This document shows, piece after piece, positions 1-38,159 of a stretch of DNA of 64,000 nucleotides. The notes beneath the pieces were generated by a model that was not told the origin of the DNA, made no database searches, and saw only the letters and a program-made list of their open reading frames with translations. Positions within the stretch are counted from its first letter, which is position 1. Every line of letters starts with the position of its first letter. The translations under genes were made by a program, and so were the position numbers. Origin of the DNA: Oscillospiraceae bacterium (lineage in GTDB: Bacteria; Bacillota; Clostridia; Oscillospirales; Oscillospiraceae); the NCBI GenBank assembly GCA_017619535.1, contig JAFZSD010000025.1, forward strand, positions 878 through 64,877. Reading direction: 5' to 3'.

Positions 1-141
1 GGCCTGCTTGCCGTCGATGAAACGGTTGATGAGCGCCGTCTTGCCTACGCGGCGGCGCCCGTAGAGGACGACAAACTCAAACTTGCCGGAGTTATACAGA
101 TTGTTCAGGGAGGCGAGCTCCCGCTCTCTGCCGATAAACAT
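1..141 (-). CDS. AAA+ ATPase (archaeal-ATPase/DUF234-like), N-terminal 47 codons only; gene runs off the left edge
   Basis: Reverse translation from ATG at 141-139: MFIGRERELASLNNLYNSGKFEFVVLYGRRRVGKTALINRFIDGKQA, with Walker A GRRRVGKT. Absent from the ORF track because it is open-ended. Confidence 0.65.
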   Translation of the reverse strand, partial: MFIGRERELASLNNLYNSGKFEFVVLYGRRRVGKTALINRFIDGKQA

Positions 142-191
142 GTAGACTACCCCCATGTTAGGTTGCCTATATTATAGCACACGGCATAATA

Positions 192-230
192 AATAGTCAA
201 GTACGATTAGGCAAATCGTACTTGACTATT
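192..230 (-). terminator. Perfect 17-bp inverted repeat hairpin between the RHH gene and the ATPase start
   Basis: AATAGTCAAGTACGATT (192-208) / AATCGTACTTGACTATT (214-230) with a 5-nt loop. On the minus strand it is followed by TTTATTAT. Confidence 0.5.
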
Positions 231-248
231 TTCTGCGTATAAATGAAT

Positions 249-274
249 GCGGGCATCCACGCTTGGATGCCCGC
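249..274 (-). terminator. 11-bp stem hairpin just downstream of the RHH gene
   Basis: GCGGGCATCCA (249-259) / TGGATGCCCGC (264-274). Lies 38 nt past the stop of the minus-strand ORF 312..494. Confidence 0.45.
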
Positions 275-311
275 TGAATTATTCTTGTCCATTCGGTCCG
301 AATTGACCAGA

Positions 312-494
312 TTACTGCTTCTCGATCTTCCCGTGCTCTCTTTCAAACTCCTCGATGGCCTTGCGGATCAGGTAGATCACTTCGCCGTTGGCCGAGCGGC
401 CCTCGTACTGAGAGATATAGTGCAGTTTATAGTGAAGCTCGCTGTCGATGCGCAACCCGAGGTGCTTATCCTTTTCCTTCTTCAGAGCGTCCAT
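312..494 (-). CDS. Small ribbon-helix-helix (Arc/CopG/HicB-antitoxin-like) DNA-binding protein, 60 aa
   Basis: ORF-track protein MDALKKEKDKHLGLRIDSELHYKLHYISQYEGRSANGEVIYLIRKAIEEFEREHGKIEKQ. The basic beta-strand LGLRID followed by two helices is the typical RHH layout. Confidence 0.6.
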   Translation of the reverse strand: MDALKKEKDKHLGLRIDSELHYKLHYISQYEGRSANGEVIYLIRKAIEEFEREHGKIEKQ

Positions 495-606
495 GCCAAG
501 CCCTCCATGTACTTGATATAAGATAACTTGAGTTTATTTCAAGTACATGTTAGAATGTGTAGAGTGTACTTACTTTAAGTACACAACATTTGAAGAGGGT
601 GAGGAT

Positions 607-918
607 ATGGAGGCAGTCGGAAGGGCGTTTTTCGTCAGATCTCCGCGCAGGATCGAGAATCTGCAGACGCTGCATCTGGTTGAGAGGGAGCGTCCGTTTG
701 AGATTGTCAAAACGGTGAAGCTGGCAAAGATCGACTATGAGAATTTCATCACGGACATGTTGGCCGACCGGCAGTTCATCGAGGATCACGCCGCGCTTTG
801 CTCAAAGGGAAGGGTGTGGCGCTGCATCCTGATCCAGCTGCGTGGCCACATGGACGGCGTGCTTGTGATGCCGGAAGACGGCTGCTATGTCGGCTGGGCG
901 GCGTATTACAGCGAATAA
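607..918 (+). CDS. Conserved hypothetical protein (103 aa), family not recognised
   Basis: ORF 547..918. The internal ATG at 607 (MEAVGRAFFVRSP...) is preferred over the upstream start, which lies inside an AT-rich palindromic spacer. A hairpin follows the stop. Confidence 0.45.
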   Translation: MEAVGRAFFVRSPRRIENLQTLHLVERERPFEIVKTVKLAKIDYENFITDMLADRQFIEDHAALCSKGRVWRCILIQLRGHMDGVLVMPEDGCYVGWAAYYSE

Positions 919-922
919 AACG

Positions 923-950
923 GCCCCTGCCTTCTTCTTAAGGCAGGGGC
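923..950. terminator. Bidirectional hairpin between convergent genes
   Basis: GCCCCTGCCT (923-932) / AGGCAGGGGC (941-950). The T-run (GTTTTATT) is on the minus-strand side. Confidence 0.5.
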
Positions 951-965
951 TGAGCCGTAGTATGC

Positions 966-1100
966 TTATTCTTCGTCCTTCACCGGCGGTTCGGATAGAA
1001 AGGTGTCCATCATAAAACATGCCCCCAACCGGAAGCCGGTGACAAAGCCGTCCAAGGTGGAGTCGCTATTGAACGTGAACCAGGCGTCGGCGAAAGTGGA
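966..1100 (-). pseudogene. 3' relic (about 44 codons) of the repeated small acidic protein gene (copy A)
   Basis: Reverse translation STFADAWFTFNSDSTLDGFVTGFRLGACFMMDTFLSEPPVKDEE* aligns with the C-terminal halves of ORFs 1174..1473 and 3817..4122. There is no N-terminal half or start codon. Confidence 0.7.
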
Positions 1101-1173
1101 GACGGCAAAGAATTACACTTTTCAATAGAGAATTGGAGCTAAAAAACACACTTTTCAAATTTGCCTGCTGATC

Positions 1174-1473
1174 CTACCCCTCCAGAAAGCTTTCGCGCTG
1201 TGCGTCGTCGCTCAAAAAGGTATCCATCATAAACCGCGCTCCGAGCCGAAAGCCGGTGACGAAGCCGTCCAGGGTAGAGTCGCCGTTGAACGAGGACCAG
1301 GCGTCGGCAAAGTCCAGGAAGCGCTTCTTTTCCTCGCCGGTCAGCGTATCGGCAAGAAACTCCTCGTCCTCCCGGATCGTCTGCATCGTGCACTGCACGC
1401 TCTCGTTTTCCTCAAAGCCGCTGTTCTGCGGATCGATATTGCCGTAATAGAGCTCCTCAATAAAGCTTTTCAT
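1174..1473 (-). CDS. Small acidic conserved protein, copy B (99 aa); family not confidently named
   Basis: MKSFIEELYYGNIDPQNSGFEENES... shares most positions over the first ~85 residues with ORF 3817..4122. AAGGAG SD lies 8 nt upstream. Confidence 0.75.
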   Translation of the reverse strand: MKSFIEELYYGNIDPQNSGFEENESVQCTMQTIREDEEFLADTLTGEEKKRFLDFADAWSSFNGDSTLDGFVTGFRLGARFMMDTFLSDDAQRESFLEG

Positions 1474-1590
1474 GTCGTTTCTCCTTGTATTTTTTAGGAG
1501 AAACCCGTGCGTTTTCTGCCTGAAAACATAGATTTTGCAACTTTTTTAAATGTGCTTGCTCAGATACGTTATTCACCGCTTGACCAAACT
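1474..1590 (-). repeat. Conserved leader/promoter block, copy 1 (also at 4123-4238 and, truncated, 6661-6750)
   Basis: Near-identical strings GAAACCCGTGCGTTTTCTGCCTGAAAACATAGATTTTGCAAC...GTGCTTGCTCA...CGTTATTCACCGCTTGACCA occur in all copies. Confidence 0.85.
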
Positions 1591-1650
1591 GGGACAAACG
1601 GAGTCAAACGGAGACATATAGGGACATATGGCGACATATGAGGACTTACG
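1591..1650. repeat. Six tandem 10-bp repeats (iteron-like), consensus GRGACAWAYG
   Basis: gggacaaacg gagtcaaacg gagacatata gggacatatg gcgacatatg aggacttacg, exactly in 10-bp register, directly upstream (minus sense) of leader block 1. Confidence 0.85.
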
Positions 1651-1937
1651 GAAAATCCCTCCCCCGCAACGGTTGCACATTTGCTTGAAGAACAGAACGC
1701 AACAGGAATCCAGACTGACAAGATTGCTGTTGCGTTCTTTGTCTCCCAGGTTATGCACCCAGCAAAACCCTTTTCAGTTTGGAGTTGACTTTCTGTTTGA
1801 ATGCATAATATACCAAGGCATATTTCTGTTCGTTTTCAATTCACGATAGCTACACAAGTTAAAACGCAGAAACACACATGCTATATTATACATATTCTCT
1901 GGAATGATTATTAAACACGGAAATTCCGTTTTTAATG

Positions 1938-1966
1938 TTGACAATTAGGGTATACTATCTTATAAT
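1938..1966 (+). promoter_or_regulatory. Canonical sigma-70 type promoter for the ATPase/Toprim operon
   Basis: TTGACA (1938-1943), 17-nt spacer, TATAAT (1961-1966). The 13-bp palindrome ACGGAAATTCCGT sits just upstream. Confidence 0.65.
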
Positions 1967-2024
1967 TGCGGCAGGTGAAAGCGTTAATTACAGAAAATGT
2001 GTTATTAGCATTGGAGGTGCAGCT

Positions 2025-3218
2025 ATGATTCTCTTGAAACTGTGCGTGTCAGGATTGCCGTTATTTCAAGGCAAATGTGAAATTGACTTCATGGCCCAAC
2101 AAAGAGTAACTGAGGAAAATGCTGAACAGATGGCACGAGTTTTCTCAACTGGATTGCAGGATTTTCACAAAAATAATGTCTTGTCGTTTATTGGCATCAA
2201 TGCTTCCGGCAAAACAACCTTGCTCAAATTGATTTCTTTTTCTTTAGGTTTGCTCAACAACGAACCCATTAATACGATTGACTGCGTCGAAGTATTAGAT
2301 GGAGTAATAGAAGGCAATCAAGTAGTATTTGAATTCTATTTCTATGCTAAGAATGGGTCTACCTACCCCTTCGATGGAAATGGCGCTATTAATTTCCTCC
2401 AGACAACTATCACTCGGAGGAAAAACAAATTTGTCATCATCTATGAAACGCTAAAGTCAAAACCTGTGGACAAAACAATGCGGAAGAAGAACTTGTTCGA
2501 TTTTTCTTCCGTCGAAATCAACATGTCAAGGCAACATATTAATTCAGAGTTTTTGCTTGATGATGTCAGTATCATGGTTGCTTTTAATAAAAGGAACAAA
2601 GAAGAACTCTTATTAATTGATATGTTGCAGTATACCAATGACAACCACCTGAACATTTCCGAAGATTGTCCTCTTGAATTAATTGCTTTCTTTGATCCAA
2701 GCGTTGAATATCTGAAGTTGAAGAGCACTGACACCAATACCGATATTTGTTTGAAATTCAAGGGAAAAGAAGAGATCATCCTCAAGCAGCTATCAGAATT
2801 AAATAGATATCTCTCATCAGGTACCATCAAGGGCATTAATGTGTTTCTCAGCGCAATGAACACTTTTAAGACGGGCGGCTACCTTGTTGTTGATGAATTG
2901 GAAAACCATTTCAACCGTGAGATTGTTTCGACAATCATACGCTTTTATATGGATCCAAAAGTAAACTATAATGGTGCCACACTGGTGTTCTCCACGCATT
3001 ACCCTGAGTTGTTGGATGAATTTGAACGCAACGATAACATCTACATTGTAAGAAACAGACAGGGTATTACTGCAGAGAATCTGTCCACAATTCTTAAACG
3101 CAATGATATTAAAAAGAGCGAAGCATATCAAAGTGACTTTCTTGAGGGCACTGTGCCTGCATATGATGCCTATATAGGTTTAAAGAAATCCTTGATCCGA
3201 AACGGCAAGGAGGACTAA
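2025..3218 (+). CDS. ABC-type (AAA_15/AAA_21-like) ATPase of abortive-infection/OLD/PARIS AriA type, 397 aa
   Basis: Start ATG 2025 with GGAGGTG SD. Walker A GINASGKTT, Walker B YLVVDELE, H-loop-like VFSTHYPELL. N-terminus MILLKLCVSGLPLFQGKCEIDF is typical of this family. Strongly AT-rich compared with the core DNA. Confidence 0.75.
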   Translation: MILLKLCVSGLPLFQGKCEIDFMAQQRVTEENAEQMARVFSTGLQDFHKNNVLSFIGINASGKTTLLKLISFSLGLLNNEPINTIDCVEVLDGVIEGNQVVFEFYFYAKNGSTYPFDGNGAINFLQTTITRRKNKFVIIYETLKSKPVDKTMRKKNLFDFSSVEINMSRQHINSEFLLDDVSIMVAFNKRNKEELLLIDMLQYTNDNHLNISEDCPLELIAFFDPSVEYLKLKSTDTNTDICLKFKGKEEIILKQLSELNRYLSSGTIKGINVFLSAMNTFKTGGYLVVDELENHFNREIVSTIIRFYMDPKVNYNGATLVFSTHYPELLDEFERNDNIYIVRNRQGITAENLSTILKRNDIKKSEAYQSDFLEGTVPAYDAYIGLKKSLIRNGKED

Positions 3219-3220
3219 TC

Positions 3221-3742
3221 ATGAACCTTACCAAGTATGTTGCTTGCATTTGCGAGGGTTCAGCTGAGCGAGCCATTATCAAGCTTCTTTTGGATGAAAA
3301 CCGACTGATTTTCACTTGGGATGATCTACTTGAAGGTGAAATCCTCCGCTGCCGAAACGCTAAGAAATTTGAGGAACAGCATTTAAGAAAAGGGTTTACA
3401 GATAAAATTACCGTTTTGAGAATTCTAGATTCAAGGCGTGAGAGATTTAAACTGAGTAAAGCCTACGCCAGCAAAATTGATGTTGTGAATGTAATTACGG
3501 CGCCTGAAATTGAGATGCTCGTTATATTTGCAGAAGGAAAATACGACGAATATAAGAAGTCGAAAAAGAAGCCAAGTACATTTTGCAAAGAAGATTTAAA
3601 AATCAGCGATGTAAAAAGCATTCAATTTGTCGAGTCGTATTTTGCTGACATTGAAGTTCTTATTTCCGCCATTCGCGAATATCGGCGAGTTTCCAGCATT
3701 CAAAGAGGCGAATATGCGTTATCAGACTTATTGAACGAATAA
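3221..3742 (+). CDS. Small Toprim-like (RloB/DUF4276-like) protein, 173 aa, partner of the ATPase
   Basis: Starts 2 nt after the ATPase stop. N-terminal acidic motif VACICEGSAERAII and downstream APEIEMLVIF resemble Toprim/DUF4276 signature positions. The assignment is motif-level only. Confidence 0.5.
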   Translation: MNLTKYVACICEGSAERAIIKLLLDENRLIFTWDDLLEGEILRCRNAKKFEEQHLRKGFTDKITVLRILDSRRERFKLSKAYASKIDVVNVITAPEIEMLVIFAEGKYDEYKKSKKKPSTFCKEDLKISDVKSIQFVESYFADIEVLISAIREYRRVSSIQRGEYALSDLLNE

Positions 3743-3779
3743 CAGCATAATGGGTTTTTATAGAGGAGAAAGTGCAAAT

Positions 3780-3811
3780 GATCCAGCCTTGCCGTTTGGC
3801 AGAGCTGGATC
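3780..3811. terminator. Strong bidirectional hairpin between convergent cargo and backbone genes
   Basis: GATCCAGC...GCTGGATC outer stem plus TGCC/GGCA inner stem. Lies between stop 3742 (+) and stop 3817 (-). Confidence 0.6.
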
Positions 3812-3816
3812 GTCAT

Positions 3817-4122
3817 TTATATTTCGTCTTTCTGATAATCTGTGCTGGATGCTTTCAACGTGACGAAAGCATCCAGCATGAACCCTGCTCCCAAACGGAA
3901 GCCGGTGACGAAACCGTCCAGGGTAGCCTCGCCGTTGAAGGCGGACCAGGCGTCGGCAAAGTCGAGAAAGCGCTTCTTCTCCTCGCCGGTCAGGGTATCG
4001 GCAAGAAAGTCCTCATTCTCCCGGATCGTCCGCATCGTGCGCTGCACGCCCTCGTCATCCTCAAAACCGCTGTTCTGCGGGTCGATATTGCCGTAATAGA
4101 GCTCCTCAATAAAGCTTTTCAT
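3817..4122 (-). CDS. Small acidic conserved protein, copy C (101 aa)
   Basis: MKSFIEELYYGNIDPQNSGFEDDEG... is a paralog of 1174..1473. Its C-terminal ~18 aa diverge and are encoded by a 14-bp perfect inverted repeat (3843-3878). Confidence 0.75.
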   Translation of the reverse strand: MKSFIEELYYGNIDPQNSGFEDDEGVQRTMRTIRENEDFLADTLTGEEKKRFLDFADAWSAFNGEATLDGFVTGFRLGAGFMLDAFVTLKASSTDYQKDEI

Positions 4123-4238
4123 ATCGTTTCTCCTTGTACTATTTTAGGAGAAACCCGTGCGTTTTCTGCCTGAAAACATAGATTTTTCAACGTTTTTTAC
4201 TGTGCTTGCTCACATCCGTTATTCACCGCTTGACCATT
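4123..4238 (-). repeat. Conserved leader/promoter block, copy 2
   Basis: Aligns base-for-base with 1474-1590 apart from scattered substitutions. Confidence 0.85.
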
Positions 4239-4300
4239 GGAGACTTATGACGAAATATGAGGATTTATGAAGACTTATGCGGACTTATGAGGCTTTACGT
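4239..4300. repeat. Six tandem 10-bp repeats (iteron-like), consensus GACTTATGMG
   Basis: ggagacttat gacgaaatat gaggatttat gaagacttat gcggacttat gaggctttac, in the same position relative to the leader block as 1591-1650 but with a different core (TTATG vs ATATG). Confidence 0.85.
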
Positions 4301-4400
4301 CAATCTCGCTACCGGCAAAATAATCTAATATGCATCGGCATATAATCTTGATATATTGCCGATAATGTGCTATAATAGGCAACGAAAGCGAGGGAAAGCC

Positions 4401-5297
4401 ATGTACTATCTTTCTGTTTCGGAAGCGGCAAAAAAGTGGGGAATATCTGAACGCAGCGTGCGGAACTACTGCGCACAAGGCAGAGTCGACGGGGCGATTC
4501 TGGTTGGTAAGACCTGGCGCATTCCGCAGAATGCCGAAAAGCCGGATCGACTCAACAAGCACAGTGATAAGCCGAAATCGCTTCTGGAGGTGTTGAAAGC
4601 CGAAAAGGCGGCCAAGCTCCACGGCGGTATTTATCATAAGATCCAAATCGAACTGACCTACAACTCCAACCACATCGAGGGCAGCCGGCTCACCCACGAT
4701 CAGACTCGCTATATCTTTGAGACAAACACCATCGGCATTACCGACGCCGCAGTAAAGGTGGACGATGTGGTTGAAACGGCCAATCATTTCAAATGCATCG
4801 ATATGATCATCGACAATGCCGCTTATGCCCCCAGTGAGTCGTTCATTAAGCAGCTCCACGCCGTGCTGAAAAGCGGGACTACCGATTCGCGACAGGACTG
4901 GTTTGCCGTAGGCGATTACAAAATGCTTCCCAACGAAGTTGGAGGCATGGATACCACCTCGCCGGAGTACGTCGCCGAGCGTATGAAAAAACTGCTGGCC
5001 GAGTATAACGCGGTCAAAGAGAAGTCTTTTGACGACTTGCTGGACTTTCATTACCGCTTCGAGCGGATCCACCCGTTTCAGGACGGAAACGGCAGAGTCG
5101 GGCGGTTGCTTCTCTTTAAAGAATGCCTGCGGAATAACATGGTGCCGTTTATCATCGACGAGGAACTCAAGCTGTATTACTATCGCGGCTTGAAGGAATG
5201 GGAGCACGAGCGCGGTTATCTCCGGGACACCTGCTTGACTGCGCAGGACAAGTTCAAGAAGTATCTGGATTATTTCAAGGTGCCGTATGAGGGCTGA
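4401..5297 (+). CDS. Fic family protein with N-terminal MerR/excisionase-type HTH, 298 aa
   Basis: MYYLSVSEAAKKWGISERSVRNYCAQGRV (HTH). Fic motif HPFQDGNGRVGR is present. ATG 4401 chosen within ORF 4356..5297. Confidence 0.85.
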   Translation: MYYLSVSEAAKKWGISERSVRNYCAQGRVDGAILVGKTWRIPQNAEKPDRLNKHSDKPKSLLEVLKAEKAAKLHGGIYHKIQIELTYNSNHIEGSRLTHDQTRYIFETNTIGITDAAVKVDDVVETANHFKCIDMIIDNAAYAPSESFIKQLHAVLKSGTTDSRQDWFAVGDYKMLPNEVGGMDTTSPEYVAERMKKLLAEYNAVKEKSFDDLLDFHYRFERIHPFQDGNGRVGRLLLFKECLRNNMVPFIIDEELKLYYYRGLKEWEHERGYLRDTCLTAQDKFKKYLDYFKVPYEG

Positions 5298-5312
5298 TGA
5301 GTTTCTGCTTGA

Positions 5313-6524
5313 ATGACAATAAACGCCAATAGCGTGAATTCAGAAGAAAAGGCCAATATGTATGCAGGAGAATTTGATATGGATTTCAACGATGTGATTT
5401 CATTTATTCAATCAGCCACTCCAGAGCTAAACGATTCGTATTGCTTTGTAAATGGTTCTTTGATGCGATTGGATCAAATAGAGAGTATGGGCTACCGCGA
5501 ATTTTGGATGCGCTCCAAGCTGAATATGCCGAAAAAGCTATATAAGTATTATTCAAATATAAGCAAAGAAAAGGATGGCATAGAGATTAACCATTCGCAT
5601 CAGGCACTTGAAAACAATACCGTGTTCATGCAATCACCAAGCGAATTTGATGATGTGTACGATTCCGATATACATATTGAATATGGAGATTATGAGAAGT
5701 ACCGGTTGCTTGAATACTGTCATCGCAGTCAGCTGAGTATTGAAAGCAATGCAACTTCTCAAGAACTCGGTGACAGTTTTTTGCATTGGATATTTGAGAC
5801 TTACCACCGTACACATTCATTTGACAGTTTCTTCCCAAAAAACCCAGAATCAGGGCTTGAAGAATTATCAAATTATAATTTCAGCTTAAGTCTGCAAAAC
5901 CAACTTCAGAAAGGGCTGGACTGGGGCAATGCATTGGCAAAAGTTATCAGAACGGAGTACGAGGGGTTTACTTCCCAGCTCAAGACGACATTTAGAACCG
6001 CTTGCTTCACCACGACTCCGTATTCTCAGCTTATGTGGGGCGGAGCATATGCGGATTGTCATAGAGGATTCTGCATTGAGTATACTGTTTTGCCAGAGAA
6101 TATAAACTATCAGGAAGTCTATCAAAATCTGTTTCCCATGGTTTATTGCAGAGCAAGACCAAATGTTTCTGCGCGAATCGTTGCTTATAAAGACAAACCA
6201 CTAACGGTAGAGAACCTTTGGGATATTTATTTTCATGGAGCTTTGCGGAAAAGCATAGACTGGACCTACCAGAATGAGTGGAGGTTGTTGCTTCCATTAG
6301 GGCGAGCTAAGGGGACGAATTATAACATTCTGTTCTTCCCAATAACAAAAGTCTTTCTCGGAAATAGAATGGCCCCGGAAAAGCGGGAAAAAATAATAGA
6401 GATCTGTCAGAGCAGAAATATCCCCTATGTTGGAGTTACACGAAATCCGGATTATTTTGAAATGCAAGAATGCGATGTGCAATGTGAGGATTGCCCTCAA
6501 TACAAGGTTTGTATTAAAGACTAA
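5313..6524 (+). CDS. DUF2971 family protein, 403 aa
   Basis: LYKYYS...NNTVFMQSPSEFDDVYDS, CFTTTPYSQLMWGGAYADCHRGFCIEY and YQNEWRLL match the characteristic DUF2971 motif order. AT-rich. The start could instead be ATG 5358. Confidence 0.7.
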   Translation: MTINANSVNSEEKANMYAGEFDMDFNDVISFIQSATPELNDSYCFVNGSLMRLDQIESMGYREFWMRSKLNMPKKLYKYYSNISKEKDGIEINHSHQALENNTVFMQSPSEFDDVYDSDIHIEYGDYEKYRLLEYCHRSQLSIESNATSQELGDSFLHWIFETYHRTHSFDSFFPKNPESGLEELSNYNFSLSLQNQLQKGLDWGNALAKVIRTEYEGFTSQLKTTFRTACFTTTPYSQLMWGGAYADCHRGFCIEYTVLPENINYQEVYQNLFPMVYCRARPNVSARIVAYKDKPLTVENLWDIYFHGALRKSIDWTYQNEWRLLLPLGRAKGTNYNILFFPITKVFLGNRMAPEKREKIIEICQSRNIPYVGVTRNPDYFEMQECDVQCEDCPQYKVCIKD

Positions 6525-6603
6525 AATGTAAAGACAAACTCCTCGCGAGCAAGATTCTACTATTTGAAATATCAACACTCTCAAAAATATGTTTTCCCAT
6601 TTT

Positions 6604-6639
6604 GAAACAGCAGCCGCTGAATTATGCGGCTGCTGTTTC
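6604..6639 (+). terminator. Rho-independent-type hairpin after the DUF2971 gene
   Basis: GAAACAGCAGCCGC (6604-6617) / GCGGCTGCTGTTTC (6626-6639). Confidence 0.6.
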
Positions 6640-6660
6640 TGCCTTCGCGTATATTTCAAC

Positions 6661-6750
6661 AAGAAACCCGAGCGCTTTCTGCCTAAAACCATAGATTTTG
6701 CAACGTTTTGAAAACGTGCTGGCTCAAGTGCGTTATTCACCGCTTGACCA
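6661..6750 (-). repeat. Conserved leader/promoter block, copy 3 (orphan: no downstream small gene, no iterons)
   Basis: AAGAAACCCGAGCGCTTTCTGCCTAAAACCATAGATTTTGCAACGTTTTGAAAACGTGCTGGCTCAAGTGCGTTATTCACCGCTTGACCA. Similarity ends at the first arm of the leader hairpin. Confidence 0.8.
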
Positions 6751-6754
6751 CGTT

Positions 6755-6793
6755 AGTACGCAAGCTATGATACAATAGCTTGCGTACTTTTTT
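6755..6793 (+). terminator. 14-bp stem hairpin plus T-run
   Basis: AGTACGCAAGCTAT (6755-6768) / ATAGCTTGCGTACT (6775-6788) followed by TTTTT. Confidence 0.5.
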
Positions 6794-6918
6794 GCGTATC
6801 TCCCCGGGAAAACCCTTGATACAAGGGCAAAGCGAGACAGGTGGGTGCAAATATGCATCTGCCAGTCTCGCTTTTTTGCTTTTTTCGACTTATATGCTCT
6901 AACTAGAGGTTTCTGGAC

Positions 6919-6932
6919 TTGCACCCACCCCC
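6919..6932 (+). repeat. Left copy of the 14-bp direct repeat TTGCACCCACCCCC
   Basis: Identical 14-mer at 9451-9464. Related GGGTGCA...ATCTGC motifs lie nearby on both sides (6841-6863 and 9416-9447). Confidence 0.8.
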
Positions 6933-7022
6933 TATACTTTTTGGCGTTTCTCAAGATACGCCAAAAGGTTCTCTAGAGTTATATTTTATCAAAGAACTCC
7001 TTTATATCGCATTATTCTCCCC

Positions 7023-7050
7023 TTGACAACATGGAAAAAGAGAATATAAT
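7023..7050 (+). promoter_or_regulatory. Sigma-70 type promoter for the MYG1/CCA operon
   Basis: TTGACA (7023-7028), 16-nt spacer, TATAAT (7045-7050). Confidence 0.6.
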
Positions 7051-7101
7051 AGCACCCTTTGTTCCTGACGGAAAAGGAATCTGTTCAGGTGGGTGTTGAA
7101 A

Positions 7102-7932
7102 ATGCTAGCTTTGGAAAATACCACTTCTATTTTTGTCCATGCCGGAATATTTCACGCAGATGACGCTTTTGCAGCTGCGCTGGTTATAGCTGCGGCCGGA
7201 AGAGTCATTCCTGTGGAAAGATGTTTATCGGTTCCTAAAGGCCTCCCGGATTCCATAATCATAGCGGATATTGGCCGAGGGAAATATGATCATCACCAGG
7301 ATGATGCAAAGCTCAGAGCAGACGGGAAAAAATATGCCGCCTGCGGACTCCTGTATGAAGAATTGAAGGAGCGTCTGTTCCTCACGGAAGAGGCGAGAGA
7401 GGAGTTTCGTTCCCACTTTATTCTTCCTATTGAGGATGCAGATAACGGCATTTCAAATAATCCTCTAACATGCTATATTGATGATATGAATCCCGATTGG
7501 GACAGGCCGGAGGAAAGCGACAGAAGATTTAGCGGTGCCGTAAAACTGTTCCTAAATCTAATCGAAGCTGCGCAAAGAAAAGAAAAGGCCGCTCTTCGTG
7601 CTGATCATCTTCTCTCTGACGCTTTAGCTAAAGCGGAGGGGAAAGTAGTCCTGCTGGAAAAACCAGTCCCTTGGCAGAGGAGAGTCTGCCAAACTGATAA
7701 TCTGTTTGTGATATATTATTCCCAAAGAGGTGTATGGACCGTTCAATGTGTTCCGGAAGAGCCAGATTCCTTCATTGTCCGATATCCGTTATCACCTATG
7801 GAGGAAATGGAGGGCTGCATATTCTGTCATGCCGGGCGGTTTCTTGCGGCGTTTGACTCGGAGGAACATGCCATAAATGCTGCGAGGAAGCTGGTAAGAG
7901 AAAGTGAGCTGAAGACTAATGGAAATTCCTGA
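7102..7932 (+). CDS. MYG1 (UPF0160) family metal-dependent exonuclease/hydrolase, 276 aa
   Basis: VHAGIFHADDAFAAAL near the N-terminus and GKYDHHQ match the MYG1 signature. ATG 7102 is preceded by AGGTGGG. Confidence 0.75.
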   Translation: MLALENTTSIFVHAGIFHADDAFAAALVIAAAGRVIPVERCLSVPKGLPDSIIIADIGRGKYDHHQDDAKLRADGKKYAACGLLYEELKERLFLTEEAREEFRSHFILPIEDADNGISNNPLTCYIDDMNPDWDRPEESDRRFSGAVKLFLNLIEAAQRKEKAALRADHLLSDALAKAEGKVVLLEKPVPWQRRVCQTDNLFVIYYSQRGVWTVQCVPEEPDSFIVRYPLSPMEEMEGCIFCHAGRFLAAFDSEEHAINAARKLVRESELKTNGNS

Positions 7933-9298
7933 AAACAAAAATGTCGTCATGGCAAGGATGATAGCTCAAAAGGTGGCGTTGGAAGGTGGCAGGGCCTTCT
8001 ATGTCGGCGGCATTGTGCGGGATCATATACTTGGCCTGGATAATAAAGATGTGGACATTGAAATACATGGAATCACGCCGGAGAAACTTGCTGAAATACT
8101 GGAGACTTTCGGAGAGGTCACGAAAACAGGATTGAGTTTCGGCGTGTTCGGACTGAAGAAGTATGAAATCGATATTGCCATGCCCCGGAAAGAGACGGCT
8201 GTTGGCCGCGGGCACAGGGATTTTGAAATTGATGTTGACCCATTCATAGGATACGAAAAAGCCGCCTTGCGACGTGACTTCACAATGAACGCCATGATGG
8301 AAGATGTGCTAACCGGTGAGATCCTGGACTATTTCGGTGGCAGAGAAGATATGAAAAAACATCTGATTCGCCATGTGAATGATGCCACATACCGGGAGGA
8401 CGCTCTGAGAGTCCTCCGTGCTGCACAGTTTGCCGCAAGATTCCAGTTTGAGATCGCAGATGAGACACGATATGTATCACAGACTATGAATCTGGCAGAA
8501 CTTGCACCGGAGAGAATTCATGATGAATTGAATAAAGCTCTCATGAAAGCAGAGAAGCCCAGTGTTTTCTTTGATGAAATGCGGAAGATGGGGCAACTGT
8601 CCCAGTGGTTCCCGGAGATAGAAGCCCTGATTGGCGTTCCGCAAAATCCTGCGCATCATCCTGAGGGGGATGTCTGGTCTCATATGCTGATGGTGCTTGA
8701 CGCCGCTGCAGAGCTGAGAAACGATGCAAAATATCCGGAAGGCTTCATGATGTCCGCGCTCACCCACGATTTGGGAAAAGCAGTCTCTACCATTGTGGAA
8801 GAGAACAAGGTTAGCTCAATCGGACACGAAATAACCGGAGTTGCGCTTGCAAGGCAGTTTCTGAGTAGAATAAGCAACGAAAACAAACTGGCGCACTATG
8901 TTCTTAACATGGTTGAGCTTCATATGAGGCCAAACATGATGGCAAGTGACAGAGCCGGTCGAAAAGCGACTTCGAAGATGTTTGATCAGTCGGTATGCCC
9001 AGAGGATCTTCTCCTTCTTGCAAAAGCGGATTATTTTGGCAAAGGCAATGCGAAGGATTACAGCACAACCGAAGCTTTCCTTCAGGAACGCCTTTCAACC
9101 TATCGGGAGCTTATGTCGCGACCATTTGTCCAAGGGCGGGATCTGATTGAGGCAGGCATAGAACCAGGGCCAGATTTCAACGAAGCGCTGGCTTACTCGC
9201 ATAAGATGAGACTTGCGGGCGTCCCCAAAGCTGATGCTCTGGCACAGACGCTGGCCTATATCAGGAAAATGAGGCAAACACCGAGCGGGAAGATATAG
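7919..9298 (+). CDS. Class II tRNA nucleotidyltransferase (CCA-adding/poly(A) polymerase family) with C-terminal HD domain, 459 aa
   Basis: GGIVRDHILG, DVDIE, RRDFTMNA and EDALRVLRAAQFAARF head-domain motifs, plus HD motifs AHHPEGDVWSH and HDLGK. Overlaps the MYG1 gene by 14 nt. Confidence 0.85.
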   Translation: MEIPENKNVVMARMIAQKVALEGGRAFYVGGIVRDHILGLDNKDVDIEIHGITPEKLAEILETFGEVTKTGLSFGVFGLKKYEIDIAMPRKETAVGRGHRDFEIDVDPFIGYEKAALRRDFTMNAMMEDVLTGEILDYFGGREDMKKHLIRHVNDATYREDALRVLRAAQFAARFQFEIADETRYVSQTMNLAELAPERIHDELNKALMKAEKPSVFFDEMRKMGQLSQWFPEIEALIGVPQNPAHHPEGDVWSHMLMVLDAAAELRNDAKYPEGFMMSALTHDLGKAVSTIVEENKVSSIGHEITGVALARQFLSRISNENKLAHYVLNMVELHMRPNMMASDRAGRKATSKMFDQSVCPEDLLLLAKADYFGKGNAKDYSTTEAFLQERLSTYRELMSRPFVQGRDLIEAGIEPGPDFNEALAYSHKMRLAGVPKADALAQTLAYIRKMRQTPSGKI

Positions 9299-9415
9299 CA
9301 ACATCTGACACTATACCCGTTATGTGAGAAAAACATAGCCCTACCTTCACTGCCTATTATATTCAGGAAAAAAGACGACCACAACGTCCAATTGGATGTA
9401 TTCGGCAAAAAAGAA

Positions 9416-9447
9416 GGGTGCAGATGCGGTTTGCATAATCTGCACCC
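9416..9447. repeat. 10-bp stem inverted repeat next to the right direct repeat
   Basis: GGGTGCAGAT (9416-9425) / ATCTGCACCC (9438-9447). Confidence 0.7.
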
Positions 9448-9450
9448 ACT

Positions 9451-9464
9451 TTGCACCCACCCCC
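9451..9464 (+). repeat. Right copy of the 14-bp direct repeat TTGCACCCACCCCC
   Basis: Identical to 6919-6932. Confidence 0.8.
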
Positions 9465-9520
9465 CTTTGGAGGTAAGAAACGCCGAATTGTATGAATACT
9501 GGAGTCCTAACGCATGAATA

Positions 9521-9550
9521 ATAGCCGCTGGCTTTGAAGCCGGCGGCTAT
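9521..9550. terminator. Bidirectional hairpin between the CCA operon and the convergent ATPase gene
   Basis: ATAGCCGCTGGC / GCCGGCGGCTAT (one mismatch), followed by TTCTTTAT. Confidence 0.5.
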
Positions 9551-9554
9551 TTCT

Positions 9555-10922
9555 TTATCCTGTGGGCAATGTTGTTCTCCAATCAAAGAGAAGAAATGAC
9601 ATGTAATGCGGGATCGTCAGTACTCTGTCAGAAACACAAAGGTTTGAATCCTTGATCCGGATCAATCGTGTTTCCCCGTAATGGTCAGGATTTGCCATCA
9701 CCGTTTTAGCGCTTTTTGTGTTTCCGTCGACAGCTTTGACCTCAAGGATCGTGGATTCCCCGTGATAATTGATAACAAAGTCCAGTTCCAGTCTGCTTTC
9801 TTTTGCAAAGTAGAAAAGCCTTCCTCCGCGTTTATACAGTGCATCAGCGATCAGCGATTCATAGATCACGCCTTTCCCCATTCCCAGTTTTCCGGACAGT
9901 ATTGCTTCTGTTGTTCCGTCTTCAAGCATTCCCACCAGCATGCCTATGTCTGTAGTGAATACTTTATACTTGTTTTGAATTACATTGACCGAAAGCGGAG
10001 TCGCCGGAACAGTCAGATTGTGAACTTTCGTGATGACACCTGCATCTTTCAGATAATCGAGCGCATCTTTCCCTGAGTCTTTTGCACCTTTGCCTGCAAT
10101 ATGTGAAACTATGAATCTCTTATTCTCTTTTCCCAAAAATGACGGTATCAGCGAAAAAGCGCTCCTGATCCTCGCAACCTCGTTTGCGTTGAAAATCGGT
10201 TTATTGTCCTTGCCCCGACGTCTTCCGAAATCATCCTGGAGATTTCTGGTGATTCTTCTGGTAATCTGGATCGTCGAGTAGATATTGTTAGTCTCCACAT
10301 AATTGCAGACCGCCTCCGGGAATCCTCCGACACACAGATACTCCCTGAACAGTGCAGTAAAAGAGTTGTGCATGGATTTTGACAAAGGTTTCTGAGTTTC
10401 AAGTGCTTCTCTGATGTAGGACACTTCCCTGTCCGTATACCCTTTAGCCCACAGGAATTCTTCGAAATCCAACGTTCTCATATCAAACTCATCTGTGCAG
10501 CCAACAGGTTTGGGTGTATCGTCAGAAACAACATAACCATTTACCCCCAAATATGAGCCTGACGCAATATAGTCGAATCTCTTATCATTTGCTACTGTTT
10601 TTAACGACAAGAGAGCCCTCGGGCATTCCTGCACCTCGTCATATATGAAGACTGTGGTTCCATATTGCAACTCTGGCAGCGGCATCTTCACGGATAACTC
10701 ACGGATGATCGTATCCACATCCAACTCGCCGTCAAACACGTCGATCAGGTCAGGTCTGTCCCAAAAGTTGAGGTAGATCACTACTTGATAATTGCTTTCA
10801 GCAAACAACCTGATTGAATGTGTTTTCCCCGATTGTCTTATGCCTCTAACCAGTGCCGGTTTATGATCATGGTCTTCTTTCCACCCCATAAGCCACTTGT
10901 CTATGTGTCTTTTTAATTCCAC
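9555..10922 (-). CDS. AAA+ ATPase with DUF4143-type C-terminal domain, 455 aa
   Basis: KPALVRGIRQSGKTH Walker A and FIYDEVQ Walker B. GTG start at 10922 is preferred (GGAGGG SD 7 nt upstream; VELKRHIDKWL...) over the ORF-track start at 10970. Confidence 0.7.
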   Translation of the reverse strand: MELKRHIDKWLMGWKEDHDHKPALVRGIRQSGKTHSIRLFAESNYQVVIYLNFWDRPDLIDVFDGELDVDTIIRELSVKMPLPELQYGTTVFIYDEVQECPRALLSLKTVANDKRFDYIASGSYLGVNGYVVSDDTPKPVGCTDEFDMRTLDFEEFLWAKGYTDREVSYIREALETQKPLSKSMHNSFTALFREYLCVGGFPEAVCNYVETNNIYSTIQITRRITRNLQDDFGRRRGKDNKPIFNANEVARIRSAFSLIPSFLGKENKRFIVSHIAGKGAKDSGKDALDYLKDAGVITKVHNLTVPATPLSVNVIQNKYKVFTTDIGMLVGMLEDGTTEAILSGKLGMGKGVIYESLIADALYKRGGRLFYFAKESRLELDFVINYHGESTILEVKAVDGNTKSAKTVMANPDHYGETRLIRIKDSNLCVSDRVLTIPHYMSFLLFDWRTTLPTG

Positions 10923-10956
10923 CTGACATCCCTCCAACACATATGATACACATATA

Positions 10957-11012
10957 TTCGGAAAAATCAAGGCGAGTTTTAAAACATTTTCGGAAAAATC
11001 AAGGCGAGTTTT
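10957..11012. repeat. Perfect 24-bp direct repeat, two copies 32 bp apart
   Basis: TTCGGAAAAATCAAGGCGAGTTTT at 10957-10980 and 10989-11012, immediately upstream (minus sense) of the ATPase gene and at the AT-rich/GC-rich transition. Confidence 0.9.
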
Positions 11013-11065
11013 GAAAAGAAAGCGGAAACACTGACAGCAAAGTAACGAACTATGATATTGCAGAG

Positions 11066-11181: not shown

Positions 11182-12645
11182 TCACATATCCGTCCGGTTC
11201 ACGATGCGGTAGACCAGGTCCATGTCGAGTCCCCCGCGGACTGCGTCGGCAAGCTTGTTGTACTGAGCCTCGCGGTAGGTACTCTGGTCGAATGAGCCGA
11301 GCGCGGAGATATCCGTGCCTTTTTTGCAGCACAGCGCGCGGAGCACCGTTTCGGCGATGCCGGGGGCGTCGAACACGCCGTGCACGTAGGTACCGTAGGT
11401 ATCGCCGTCCGAGATGACGGGCGGAAGTTCTCCGCTTCTTCCCATGTGGATCTCATAACCCTCGTAGGACAGGCCGGAGAGCGGGGCGAGAATACCGGTG
11501 ATCTCCGGGAACACGCCGCCGGTCTGCCGCTGCACCTTGTCCCCGGAGAAAACGGTGCGGACAGGCAACAGGCCCATGCCGTCGATCCTGGTCATGCCGG
11601 ATGCCTCGACGCCGTCGGGATCCTCCACGGAACAGCCGAGCATCTGGTAGCCGCCGCAGATACCGAACACCGGCGTTCCGCGGGATTCATGCTGTTTTAT
11701 CGCTGCCTCGAGCCCGCTCTCGCGCAGCCATACGAGGTCGGATATCGTGCTCTTGGTGCCGGGGATCACGATAAGATCGGGCTCCTGCAGATCCCCGGGC
11801 TTCGTGACGTAGCGTACGGAGACGTTTTCCCACCGTTCAAACGGGGCGAGATCTGTGAAATTCGAGATACGCGGAAGACGGACGACGGCGATATCTATGA
11901 GCTTTGCCGCGCCGTCACGGTAAAACCGCTCCGAAAGGCTGTCCTCGTCGTCGATGTCCACATGAAGATACGGCACGACGCCCGCCACGGGCACGCCGCA
12001 CAGCGCGGACAGCTGCGTAAGTCCCGGCTCCAGGATCTTTCTGTCGCCGCGGAACTTGTTGACGATCACGGCCTTAATGCGTTCGCGTTCGTCGCTCTCC
12101 AGAAGGGCGACCGTGCCGTAGAGTTGGGCGAACACGCCTCCCCTGTCTATATCGCCCACGAGCAGAACGGGGGCGTCCACCATCTTAGCAAGGCCCATAT
12201 TGACGATGTCCTCGCTTTTGAGGTTTATCTCGGCCGGACTGCCGGCGCCCTCGATGACGATAATATCGTTTTCGGCCGCCAGGGAATCGTATGCCTCCAT
12301 GACGGCGGGTATGAACTCGCGCTTGCGCCGGAAATACTCCATCGCGCGCATGTTGCCGACGGGGCGTCCGTTGACGATTATCTGAGAGCCCACGTCGGTG
12401 GTCGGCTTCAGCAGGATGGGGTTCATGCGCACGTCGGGTTCGATCCCGGCGGCCTCCGCCTGCACCACCTGCGCCCGGCCCATCTCGAAACCGTCCCTGG
12501 TTATGAAAGAGTTAAGCGCCATGTTCTGGCTTTTGAACGGCGCGACGCGGTATCCGTCCTGCCGGAAGATGCGGCAGAGGGCGGCGGCTATGAGGCTCTT
12601 GCCGGCGTTGGACATGGTGCCCTGTATCATTACGTTCTTTGCCAT
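11182..12645 (-). CDS. cobQ: Cobyric acid synthase
   Basis: [27 protein letters not shown]... with a C-terminal glutamine amidotransferase-like part ([10 protein letters not shown]). Confidence 0.9.
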
Positions 12646-22299: not shown

Positions 22300-22565
22300 T
22301 CCGCAGCGTTAACAGTTCCCTTTGCCTTCCGTCCTTCGGCAAAGAGATCGCGGCAAGCAGGTCTTCCGACTCACGCATCACCGGGGATACACGGCCTTCT
22401 CGGTCTCCCAATGGCCTGCTTTCGCATCGTGCTCCCTCCGCGTTCACGGCGGCGGTTCCGTCCGGGAATCTCACCCGGTTCTCTATTATCTCATCGCGGC
22501 CTTTACGGGAACCGGCCGTGATGAGCACTTGTCGTCGTTATGCAGTTTTTCGGATTCGCTATTTT
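22300..22565 (-). promoter_or_regulatory. Cobalamin (B12) riboswitch leader of the cbi operon
   Basis: Reverse strand reads ...GAACCGGGTGAGATTCCCGGACGGAACCGCCGCCGTGAA...GCCATTGGGAGACC...GAGTCGGAAGACCTGC (B12 box, about 22358-22373). Promoter TTGACA-17-TACAAT lies at 22604-22576. Confidence 0.8.
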
Positions 22566-22646: not shown

Positions 22647-22971
22647 TTGACATCATATGCCAATTGGTGTATGCTAACTTCAATTGAATATGTATCCAAG
22701 TGCTCGGCAGGGCCTTCGGGCTCTGCCGGGAGAATAGGAAATCCGGTCAAAATCCGGAACGGTACCGCCACTGTGATTGCGACAGTTCGCGCATTGGACG
22801 AAAGTCGGCCATTGGGAAACTGAGAAGGCTTTGCGCGAATGACGAGGCATGAGTCAGGAGACCTGCTTGGATATCTGAGGGTGTGCATTCCCACGGATCT
22901 TGGGGAGGCAGGCTTGCGTTTGCTGCGTAAAAACGGTCGCGGCGGGATCTTCCCGCCGCGGCTTTGTTTTT
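22647..22971 (+). promoter_or_regulatory. Promoter plus cobalamin (B12) riboswitch plus terminator controlling the lipoprotein operon
   Basis: TTGACA (22647) -17- TATGCT. Aptamer AATAGGAAATCCGGTCAAAATCCGGAACGGTACCGCCACTGTGA ... GCCATTGGGAA ... GAGTCAGGAGACCTGC (B12 box). Terminator CGCGGCGGGA/TCCCGCCGCG plus T-run at 22938-22971. Confidence 0.85.
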
Positions 22972-37849: not shown

Positions 37850-38159
37850 AAATAAATCCTCCGGCCCGTACGGGCACAGAGGACGAAATTACTTCGTGGT
37901 ACCACCTCAGTTTACCGTGTCCTCACGGACGCGGCCTCTGGGATACTTACATATCCGCAGCGCTGTAACGGGCGCCCCCGTCTCTCTTACTCGCGCTTTT
38001 CGCGCTTTCGGATCGCAGCTCGGAAGGGTAATTCAGACACTGCGCTCTGCCGTCTTGCACCGACCGGCGGCTCTCTGAAAAAGCGATCCAGCGTCTTACT
38101 GAGTCTTCGTCATCGCGTTTCTTGTGTCGTACTTTAACACTTTAACTTGTAAAAGTCAA
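37850..38159 (-). promoter_or_regulatory. Promoter plus T-box riboswitch leader controlling the SSS transporter
   Basis: Reverse strand: TTGACT-17-TAAAGT (38159-38131); GA/K-turn GATGACGAAG; AGTAA; AGAGAG; GGTGCAAG distal loop; specifier-loop string TGAATTACC-CTTCCGAG; T-box GAGGTGGTACCACG (about 37893-37910); terminator TCCTC...GAGGA plus TTTATTTTTTT. Confidence 0.75.

Follow-up and report, generated by a model that had tools for sequence, protein, structure and literature searches.

Tandem units headed by a leader-DUF6809 module in an Oscillospiraceae genome: a probable accretion array of recombinase-less integrative element derivatives

Layout of the array in the window

The DNA analysed here, referred to as the window throughout, is a 64-kb stretch of an Oscillospiraceae genome (assembly GCA_017619535.1, contig JAFZSD010000025.1) that carries an array of cassette-like units at its left edge. 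A low-GC island (40-52%) spans position 1 to ~11000, where the GC content jumps from ~45% to the 62% of the surrounding chromosome. Three copies of a 113-bp block with the first letters TGGTCAAGCGGTGAATAACG lie in this island, all on the minus strand, as a first-pass annotation made from the sequence alone had noted; exactly three copies of the 19-mer CGTTATTCACCGCTTGACC are present in the window, whereas shuffled sequences predict none. We refer to the three blocks as the left-end modules LE1, LE2, and LE3. Read from high to low coordinates, the array begins with a hairpin (6788-6755), followed by LE3, a convergent DUF2971/Fic operon and a right end of type B; it continues with LE2, the second of two DUF6809 genes, a convergent operon for a 173-aa protein and an ATPase, and a right end of type A. 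LE1, the first DUF6809 gene, the relic of a fourth unit and that unit's cargo (123-aa, RHH, ATPase_2/DUF234 and further genes), which extends past the window edge, complete the array. A blastn comparison of positions 1-1700 with plasmid and phage collections gave matches in neither, and a scan of the whole window at Rfam gathering thresholds returned no family within the array region.

LE1 (1474-1586, minus strand) consists of an att half-site core, TGGTCAAGCGGTGAATAACGTATCTGAGCAAGCAC (1552-1586), a conserved spacer containing the -35-like hexamer TTGCAA, and a 5' untranslated region with a stem, in which GGGTTTCTCC (1497-1506) pairs with the Shine-Dalgarno sequence GGAGAAAC (1477-1484). LE2 (4123-4236, minus strand) is built in the same way, with its core at 4202-4236, the anti-Shine-Dalgarno arm at 4147-4156 and the Shine-Dalgarno sequence at 4126-4133. 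LE3 (6655-6750, minus strand; core 6716-6750) has no DUF6809 gene and is an orphan, as stated in the first-pass annotation: its similarity to the other copies runs out at ~6662, just past the anti-Shine-Dalgarno arm CGCTCGGGTTTCT (6662-6674). All junctions in the window share the dinucleotide TG (1585-1586, 4235-4236, and 6749-6750). Five nucleotides from the TGG of LE3 lies a terminator-type hairpin on the plus strand (6755-6788, the "X flank"), which is the B-type partner of an attL-like junction.

The leader hairpin formed by GGGTTTCTCC and GGAGAAAC has a folding energy of -11.9 kcal/mol (z = -4.05). Since RNAalifold across the subfamilies of the module came out of register, single-sequence folds were used for the comparison. 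The Shine-Dalgarno-sequestering stem is kept in four subfamilies despite their differing sequences, with z-scores of -3.2 to -5.3 (-1.8 in subfamily g2). This conservation of the stem through sequence change indicates that translation of DUF6809 is probably gated by the leader.

The two genes behind LE1 and LE2 had been described as encoding paralogous acidic proteins of about 100 aa, and both proteins belong to the DUF6809 family (Pfam PF20648; 79.5 and 77.0 bits, cut-off 27). Copy 1 (1174-1473, minus strand) encodes 99 aa with a pI of 4.05 (E 3e-22), and copy 2 (3817-4122, minus strand) 101 aa with a pI of 4.21 (E 2e-21). From 1217 and 3866 onward, the two copies are 89% identical at the nucleotide level over ~370 nt. 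The supposed 3' relic of a third gene (966-1100, minus strand) proved genuine, as tblastn aligns it to residues 55-94 with 75% identity. It is the remnant of the unit carrying the 123-aa, RHH, and ATPase cargo on its left. In four loci from other genomes, which are designated here by L numbers, the counterpart of the relic is intact and joined to the same cargo (L019, L020, L028, and L029), which argues that two units were probably fused in the window by deletion. L016 likewise contains an intact counterpart and the same cargo, split by a 3.9-kb insertion.

At the 3' end of DUF6809 copy 2, both features reported by the first-pass annotation are present, i.e., a perfect 14-bp inverted repeat (3844-3857 / 3866-3879) and an adjoining terminator hairpin (3778-3813) that reuses its ATCCAGC/GCTGGAT heptamer. 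The C-terminal tail of copy 2 is encoded by an inverted duplication of the gene's own MLDAF-coding sequence, and the 3844-3879 duplication looks like a snap-back or template-switch repair scar at the cargo junction. The relic, like the exchange of DUF6809 C-termini, is accounted for by homologous or illegitimate recombination events.

Cargo 1 (1938-3813, plus strand) comprises a sigma-70 promoter with 12/12 matches (1938-1966), a gene for an AbiLi-like AAA_21 ATPase (2025-3218, plus strand; AbiLi model 1.4e-32), a gene for a 173-aa protein (3221-3742, plus strand), and the hairpin terminator at 3778-3813 (-23.9 kcal/mol). Cargo 2 (4348-6639, plus strand) has a near-perfect sigma-70 promoter (4348-4376), genes for an HTH-Fic protein (PDC-S04; 4401-5297, plus strand; 5e-110) and a DUF2971 protein (PDC-S31; 5313-6524, plus strand; 8e-33), and a terminator hairpin (6604-6639; -29.1 kcal/mol). 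The earlier description of these operons as convergent with the DUF6809 genes, and its ATPase, Fic, and DUF2971 assignments, agree with our results. The label "Toprim" for the 173-aa protein is unsupported: searches with PADLOC, Pfam, and NCBIfam models gave no Toprim, AbiLii or other significant match, and of the AbiL system only the AbiLi-like ATPase was thus matched, its partner gene having no match to AbiLii. The cargo of the relic's unit (1-950) includes a bidirectional terminator (923-950), a 123-aa gene (547-918, plus strand), an Arc/ribbon-helix-helix (RHH)-like 60-aa gene (312-494, minus strand), and the 5' end of an ATPase_2/DUF234-type ATPase gene (~1-140, minus strand) that continues beyond the window edge. 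Locus L097 is 94% identical to window positions 2-1669 and carries ATPase_2/DUF234, UvrD, DEAD, and PLD/DUF3427 genes onward. Most of the window cargo (AbiLi-like, Fic/PDC-S04, DUF2971/PDC-S31) represents candidate phage-defence genes.

Each of the two right ends abuts the TG of the neighbouring left-end module. The type A right end of the ATPase unit (1587-1745, minus strand) contains a terminator hairpin (1694-1738), an 18-nt relic of a tRNA-Met 3' end (1656-1670), and phased 10-bp repeats CATATGTC / CGTTTGNC (1593-1640), and its last letters, CCCAGTT, adjoin the TG of LE1. The type B right end of the Fic unit (4237-4318, minus strand) contains a degenerate tRNA-Met-like relic (4300-4318), whose likeness was judged by eye and not by alignment, and five to six phased 10-bp repeats CATAAGTC (4242-4297), and its last letters, TCTCCAA, adjoin the TG of LE2. 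The first-pass annotation had not noted these repeats and relics, which flank LE1 and LE2 on the outside (1593-1670 and 4242-4318).

The module and its recombinase-bearing relatives in other genomes

The first-pass annotation had proposed searching related genomes for the block and listing the genes between its copies. These genes proved to be variable, which contradicts a one-off segmental duplication. The left-end/DUF6809 module recurs in dozens of Clostridia genomes from rumen and gut, beside neighbours that change from one genome to the next, and among loci with close homologues the convergent cargo after DUF6809 varies from locus to locus. It includes flavodoxin/esterase/alcohol dehydrogenase operons, radical-SAM/DUF5131/MarR units, helicase-rich defence-like sets, and Fic genes. 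Several contigs contain at least two copies of the module with cargo in between. In total, the protein collection contained 575 DUF6809 homologues, many of them on short contigs broken during assembly, and 286 DUF6809-encoding stretches were present among species-representative genomes. Searching viral contigs with the left-end core pattern yielded three chance matches and no real module.

In the orientation of DUF6809, the module always starts with TGGTC, ~115 nt before the ATG, and what lies to its left falls into two classes. The first consists of 23 distinct, unrelated flanks, and in most of them a strong terminator-type hairpin stops 0-8 nt short of the TGG; the flanks have a median folding energy of -20 kcal/mol, compared to -8.8 kcal/mol for random 50-mers from the same loci. 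The second is a conserved right end, seen as about 19 phased-repeat ends with 3-6 direct repeats phased at 10 bp. In recombinase-less units this end is ordered as terminator hairpin, 18-nt tRNA-Met 3' relic, and three to six phased 10-bp repeats, and its last letters before the TG are CCCAATC or CCCAGTT (type A) or TCTCCAA (type B). The repeats vary across units (CATATGTC, CATAAGTC, GATTCC, and CCCATAAC). The relic sits where tRNA-Met begins in junctions beside autonomous elements.

A unit with radical-SAM/DUF5131/MarR cargo, present in seven contigs, is joined to four different partners at the identical nucleotide, one of which, in L010, is a tandem copy of the unit itself that is just 91% identical. 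Orphan modules that end at or just past ACGCACGGGT were found in L094 (twice), L097, L030, L035, and L040, representing two subfamilies, and the module of L013 is truncated a few codons inside the DUF6809 gene. Some modules are 5'-truncated and begin at ACGCACGGG, and cargo-less mini-units consist of a 24-35-nt core fused to a right end. The recurrence of the orphan, 5'-truncated, and mini-unit forms points to discrete ends rather than random decay. Clustering of recurrent neighbours across loci returned only cargo families and no recombinase. The most recurrent cargo beside the junctions are AAA_14/DUF4143 ATPases, which occur in eight loci (L014, L016, L018, L030, L035, L036, L037, and L097), sometimes with a conserved 347-aa partner, as well as in the window (9555-10970).

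Recombinase-bearing relatives include the more distant subfamily g3a, which comprises 27 genomes, mostly Acutalibacteraceae, with the homologous end TGGTGCGGGTGTTCATAACGGACTTGA placed behind a different terminator hairpin in each. The g3a element of ~9.5 kb consists of this end, the leader, DUF6809, TnpV, a Cro/C1-type HTH gene, variable cargo, a ParB-like gene, a 75-aa open reading frame, and a gene for a TnpX-like large serine recombinase. The full backbone was annotated in L059 and recurs elsewhere by tblastn. In L059, the cargo encodes an Eco57I-like methylase, DUF6414, and an AAA ATPase, and the recombinase has Resolvase, Recombinase, Zn_ribbon_recom, and DUF4368 domains. TnpV follows DUF6809 in more than 40 g3 loci. 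In at least 11 loci, and in all cases with a flank of sufficient length, ParB or the recombinase appears 5.5-10 kb further downstream.

In the autonomous elements, the right end reads CCGTTATGAACACTCGATA followed by TGG and adjoins either a tRNA gene, at its 3' (CCA) end, or a tRNA 3' fragment (L059, L062, L065, and L067); the target is tRNA-Met for g1 and g2 and tRNA-Pro for g3a. Within the right end, CCGTTATGAACAC forms an inverted repeat with GTGTTCATAACGG of the left end. The resulting terminal inverted repeats of 11-13 bp, spaced 14 bp, are centred on the junction TG (TCGATA-TG-GTGCGG), and such inverted repeats around a central TG correspond to the attP layout of a serine recombinase. 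They are clear in the g3a relatives only and absent between the left and right ends of the window. In L030 (g2), a whole array is visible, which runs from an orphan module and its cargo through a mini-unit to a full module with DUF6809, followed by more cargo and the recombinase gene; the array closes with a hairpin ending in TCGATA, the TGG, and tRNA-Met. A tRNA anchor beside the array was likewise seen in L042, L024, and L038. L021 (g1) is a close relative that, like L030, ties the recombinase to the window's own subfamily: the first 20 nt of its left-end core are identical to those of the window, its DUF6809 is 77% identical to the window's, and further downstream lie genes for NikA-like and ParB-like proteins and the 5' part of a recombinase gene, whose N-terminus, found by tblastn, is 69% identical to that of L059.

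DUF6809 is the att-proximal first gene of this serine-recombinase element family. From the position of the gene, we infer that the protein acts as a recombination accessory or directionality factor. In L111 (1563-2771), a distant DUF6809-like open reading frame (103 aa, weak Pfam match) lies 4 nt upstream of a truncated phage-type tyrosine integrase gene, a position typical of an excisionase.

Another set of genes was considered as a source of the cognate enzyme and rejected. The NikA-relaxase-ParB-recombinase genes of L042 and L094 belong, as a comparison with L098 indicates, to a separate mobilisable element. This element encodes a NikA-like protein, a relaxase, ParB, a 71-aa open reading frame, and a serine recombinase (L042 5565-9746; L094 2485-3719; L098 7218-11668). 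In each of two unrelated arrays, its end lies ~55 nt ahead of the left-end module; in L098 it adjoins a tRNA-Arg terminator, and it appears to target terminator-like palindromes.

Origin of the array, competing explanations and the rest of the island

Taken together, the array probably arose by tandem accretion, its units being recombinase-less derivatives of a family of integrative elements that encode large serine recombinases and are related to Tn4451 and Tn6104/Tn6106. The autonomous, recombinase-bearing elements of relatives have a left end homologous to that of the window units, which marks these units as probable recombinase-less derivatives, similar to cis-mobilizable elements (CIMEs). 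A tblastn search of the 64 kb, with the L059 protein as the recombinase query, detected no homologue of the recombinase, TnpV or ParB, in line with the earlier remark that no recombinase is visible. The left-end core aligns with tRNA 3' ends (TGGT .. GGAYTTGA), and by this mimicry an occupied site could serve again as a target: it would still resemble the original site, so that the next element would integrate alongside and the array would grow. The three window units would subsequently have lost their recombination genes, each keeping the left att half-site, the leader, and the cargo with its promoter and terminator; two of the three would have kept DUF6809, and the fourth unit would be left as a DUF6809 3' relic alone. 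A cognate recombinase elsewhere in the cell could presumably move such units in trans or in cis. In favour of this origin, the module boundary falls at the same TGG whatever the context, be it an unrelated flank or a phased-repeat end. The previous suggestion that cargo has been stacked at a recombination hotspot is supported by the constant backbone, the varied cargo, and the recombinase-bearing autonomous relatives.

Several points weigh against an origin from serine-recombinase elements. Neither an excision product nor an empty site nor a circular joint was observed, and the tRNA anchor of the array is not in view, as the 64-kb window contains no tRNA gene. The g1-type autonomous right end was not recovered, the L021 contig stopping within the recombinase gene. 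The right ends of the recombinase-less units, with their tRNA-Met relic and phased repeats, are unlike the autonomous right ends and have no dyad symmetry with the left end. Furthermore, a second recurrent breakpoint lies ~75 nt from the TG, at the tRNA relic, which a single serine-recombinase crossover does not predict. Finally, for DUF6809, whose proposed role is drawn from gene position, the AlphaFold2 model is poor (predicted local distance difference test, pLDDT, 62; predicted template-modelling score, pTM, 0.47).

An alternative is a dedicated cassette system, in which the units are mobilised by another recombinase, e.g., of the tyrosine type aimed at the tRNA-Met T-arm. The 18-nt tRNA relic would then be the core site and the phased repeats arm-type sites, and the link to serine recombinases would be a trace of ancestry or a coincidence. 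Arm sites of tyrosine integrases typically take the form of direct repeats with a phase of 10-11 bp next to a core, and a tRNA-Met 3' relic opens every phased-repeat end. The window and L097 become homologous at the relic despite having different cargo on its left, and the 99% identity that L010 and L007 share as far as the relic drops to ~88% within the repeats. Phased repeats were not found in L059 and L030, the two autonomous or near-autonomous serine-recombinase elements scanned, and the arrangement in L111 places a DUF6809-like gene directly upstream of a tyrosine integrase gene. However, a scan of all loci detected tyrosine recombinase genes near only four of them, scattered and in inconsistent positions. 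The bona fide serine-recombinase elements have the same TG junction, and phased-repeat ends are joined to three other partners exactly at the TG. We consider a dedicated system improbable. The phased repeats themselves could serve as arm-type sites of a second system, of the tyrosine type and directed at the T-arm of the tRNA; they could form an array to which ParB, TnpV or the HTH protein binds; or they could be recombinase half-sites multiplied by replication slippage.

The first-pass annotation had left the mechanism as homologous or site-specific recombination; the site-specific part is favoured, as for homologous recombination alone the junctions are too sharp and too recurrent. Under homologous recombination only, the ~400-bp leader-DUF6809 block would act as a portable region of homology, and circles looped out between direct repeats would re-enter by Campbell-type recombination, or the array would be a one-off segmental duplication. 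This agrees with the 89% identity of the window copies across ~370 nt. It also agrees with the relic and with the swapped C-terminal tails, as both show breaks inside or just after the gene and the tails move together with the cargo that lies downstream. Similarly, the L008 module is 99.9% identical to that of L010 and differs from 32 nt past the stop codon. The explanation fails to account for identical junction nucleotides beside unrelated flanks in more than 40 contexts, for orphan ends cut at or just after ACGCACGGGT in two subfamilies, for cargo-less mini-units of a 24-35-nt core and a phased-repeat end, and for the inverted-repeat/TG architecture of the autonomous relatives, and the one-off duplication is ruled against by cargo that differs between genomes. 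As the sole mechanism, homologous recombination is thus quite unlikely.

A purely regulatory backbone, whose leader/DUF6809 units control the neighbouring cargo by antisense or convergent transcription with the phased repeats as operators, is highly improbable: backbone and cargo are always convergent or divergent and repeats lie 60-100 bp upstream of the Fic promoter, but strong bidirectional hairpins separate the members of each convergent pair, the cargo operons have consensus promoters of their own, no sigma-70-type promoter was detected on the block's own strand beyond the -35-like TTGCAA, and the module stands beside unrelated cargo in either orientation or beside no cargo at all. The earlier proposal that the leader copies are promoters directed at the cargo is unsupported on the same grounds, i.e., the promoters of the cargo, the separating hairpins and the lack of a detected block promoter make antisense control unlikely.

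Other classes of mobile DNA were rejected on anatomy by reading the sequences, namely the terminal inverted repeats of DDE transposons, IS200/IS605- or IS91-type ends, group IIC intron insertion behind terminators, and attC-like hairpins.

Returning to the accretion of serine-recombinase derivatives, one extension of it would see the units as an active, integron-like pool of defence cassettes in rumen and gut Oscillospiraceae. Resident TnpX-like recombinases would excise and re-insert the units in trans at the TG beside any left-end core, leader-restrained DUF6809 would be the directionality factor, and the tRNA-relic/phased-repeat right end would be a specialised capture site. We regard this extension as speculative and rather doubtful.

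The remainder of the low-GC island (6789-10970) contains additional units on mixed strands, which lie outside the repeated-module finding. A near-perfect sigma-70 promoter (7023-7050) precedes a MYG1-like gene (UPF0160; 7093-7932, plus strand) and a gene for a CCA-adding/PolyA_pol-HD nucleotidyltransferase (7919-9298, plus strand). Together (7023-9298) they form a cargo-like operon, an odd pair for a mobile island. A second type of junction, a hairpin followed by TGCGTTAGGAC (9501-9514), lies next to the AAA_14/DUF4143 ATPase gene (9555-10970, minus strand). TGCGTTAGGAC stands 3' of a terminator hairpin in the window and 3' of a phased-repeat right end in L014 (4116-4254), and may be the left end of another element family using the same TG junction. 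The motif GGTGGGTGCA lies inside the TGCGTTAGGAC-type junction sequence, with more copies at window positions 6920-6929 and 9452-9461. At the boundary between island and chromosome, 2.2 tandem copies of the 32-bp unit CGGAAAAATCAAGGCGAGTTTTAAAACATAAG (10959-11028) coincide with the rise in GC, beside the first high-GC gene (11182-12645). The high-GC chromosomal part contains two divergent cobalamin riboswitches (22339-22531, minus strand; 22682-22884, plus strand) and a T-box leader (37876-38122, minus strand), all unrelated to the array.

Comparison with known systems

Clostridia are known to harbour elements of the Tn4451/Tn6104 type, which combine TnpX-like recombinases, TnpV, 2-bp crossovers, and accessory cargo (PMC3158075). 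The autonomous relatives (L059, L047, L065, and others) resemble Tn4451/Tn4453 and Tn6104/Tn6106 in having the recombinase gene at one extreme end, and they share TnpV, central accessory cargo, and ends that meet at a 2-bp crossover with the Tn4451/Tn6104 types. Unlike these, they have DUF6809 with its structured leader as the first gene and a ParB-like gene beside the recombinase gene, and their right end adjoins the 3' end of a tRNA; Tn4451, by contrast, shows little target specificity. Neither the TnpX-like recombinase nor TnpV is present in the window, which contains only recombinase-less derivatives; the recombinase domains are present in L042 and L059.

Tandem islands have been described as arising when elements decay to recombinase-less CIMEs and then accrete (PMC5704250). 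Like CIMEs in the ICESt1/ICESt3 model, the window units are decayed, have att-related ends, and stand in tandem with related elements. Their left-end core is homologous to the left ends of autonomous L021, g2, and g3a elements, and they hold only DUF6809 and cargo, without integration or transfer genes. The described CIMEs mostly depend on tyrosine integrases and occur as one or two units, whereas up to four or five units of 1-8 kb are present here, each of which keeps the ~100-bp leader, often the first gene, and an unusual right end.

Composite SCCmec islands, built by CcrAB large serine recombinases at rlmH, arise by serial insertion at one site and contain recombinase-less pseudo-SCC units with cargo and repeated att-like separators. 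They differ from the array in that their recombinases are unrelated in detail and have another target, and the repeated unit described here includes a gene and its regulatory leader. The likeness to integron cassette arrays, i.e., small cargo units without a recombinase of their own, is a functional analogy only. IntI, attI, Pc, and attC are lacking: there is no tyrosine recombinase in the window and no attC-like palindrome at the unit ends, which were read by eye without an attC model. Unlike integron cassettes, those of the window carry promoters and terminators and are convergent with the backbone.

From the array one can see how gut and rumen Clostridia, which are abundant but little studied, package and shuffle their candidate operons for phage defence and detoxification. 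The travelling units keep one attachment half-site, a gated small gene, and cargo, and stack at a hotspot, which in relatives is the 3' end of tRNA-Met. The uncharacterised family DUF6809 gains a context as an att-proximal first gene, suggesting an accessory role in recombination, and the left-end core, as an nhmmer model, provides a sequence handle for spotting arrays and their cargo in metagenomes. The array falls within a kind already known, the integrative elements with serine recombinases and the derivatives that arise from them by decay and accretion. New in comparison are the DUF6809 gene with its gated leader as the retained backbone, the stacking of several small cassettes in one array, with candidate defence genes among their cargo, and the right end composed of a tRNA relic and phased repeats.

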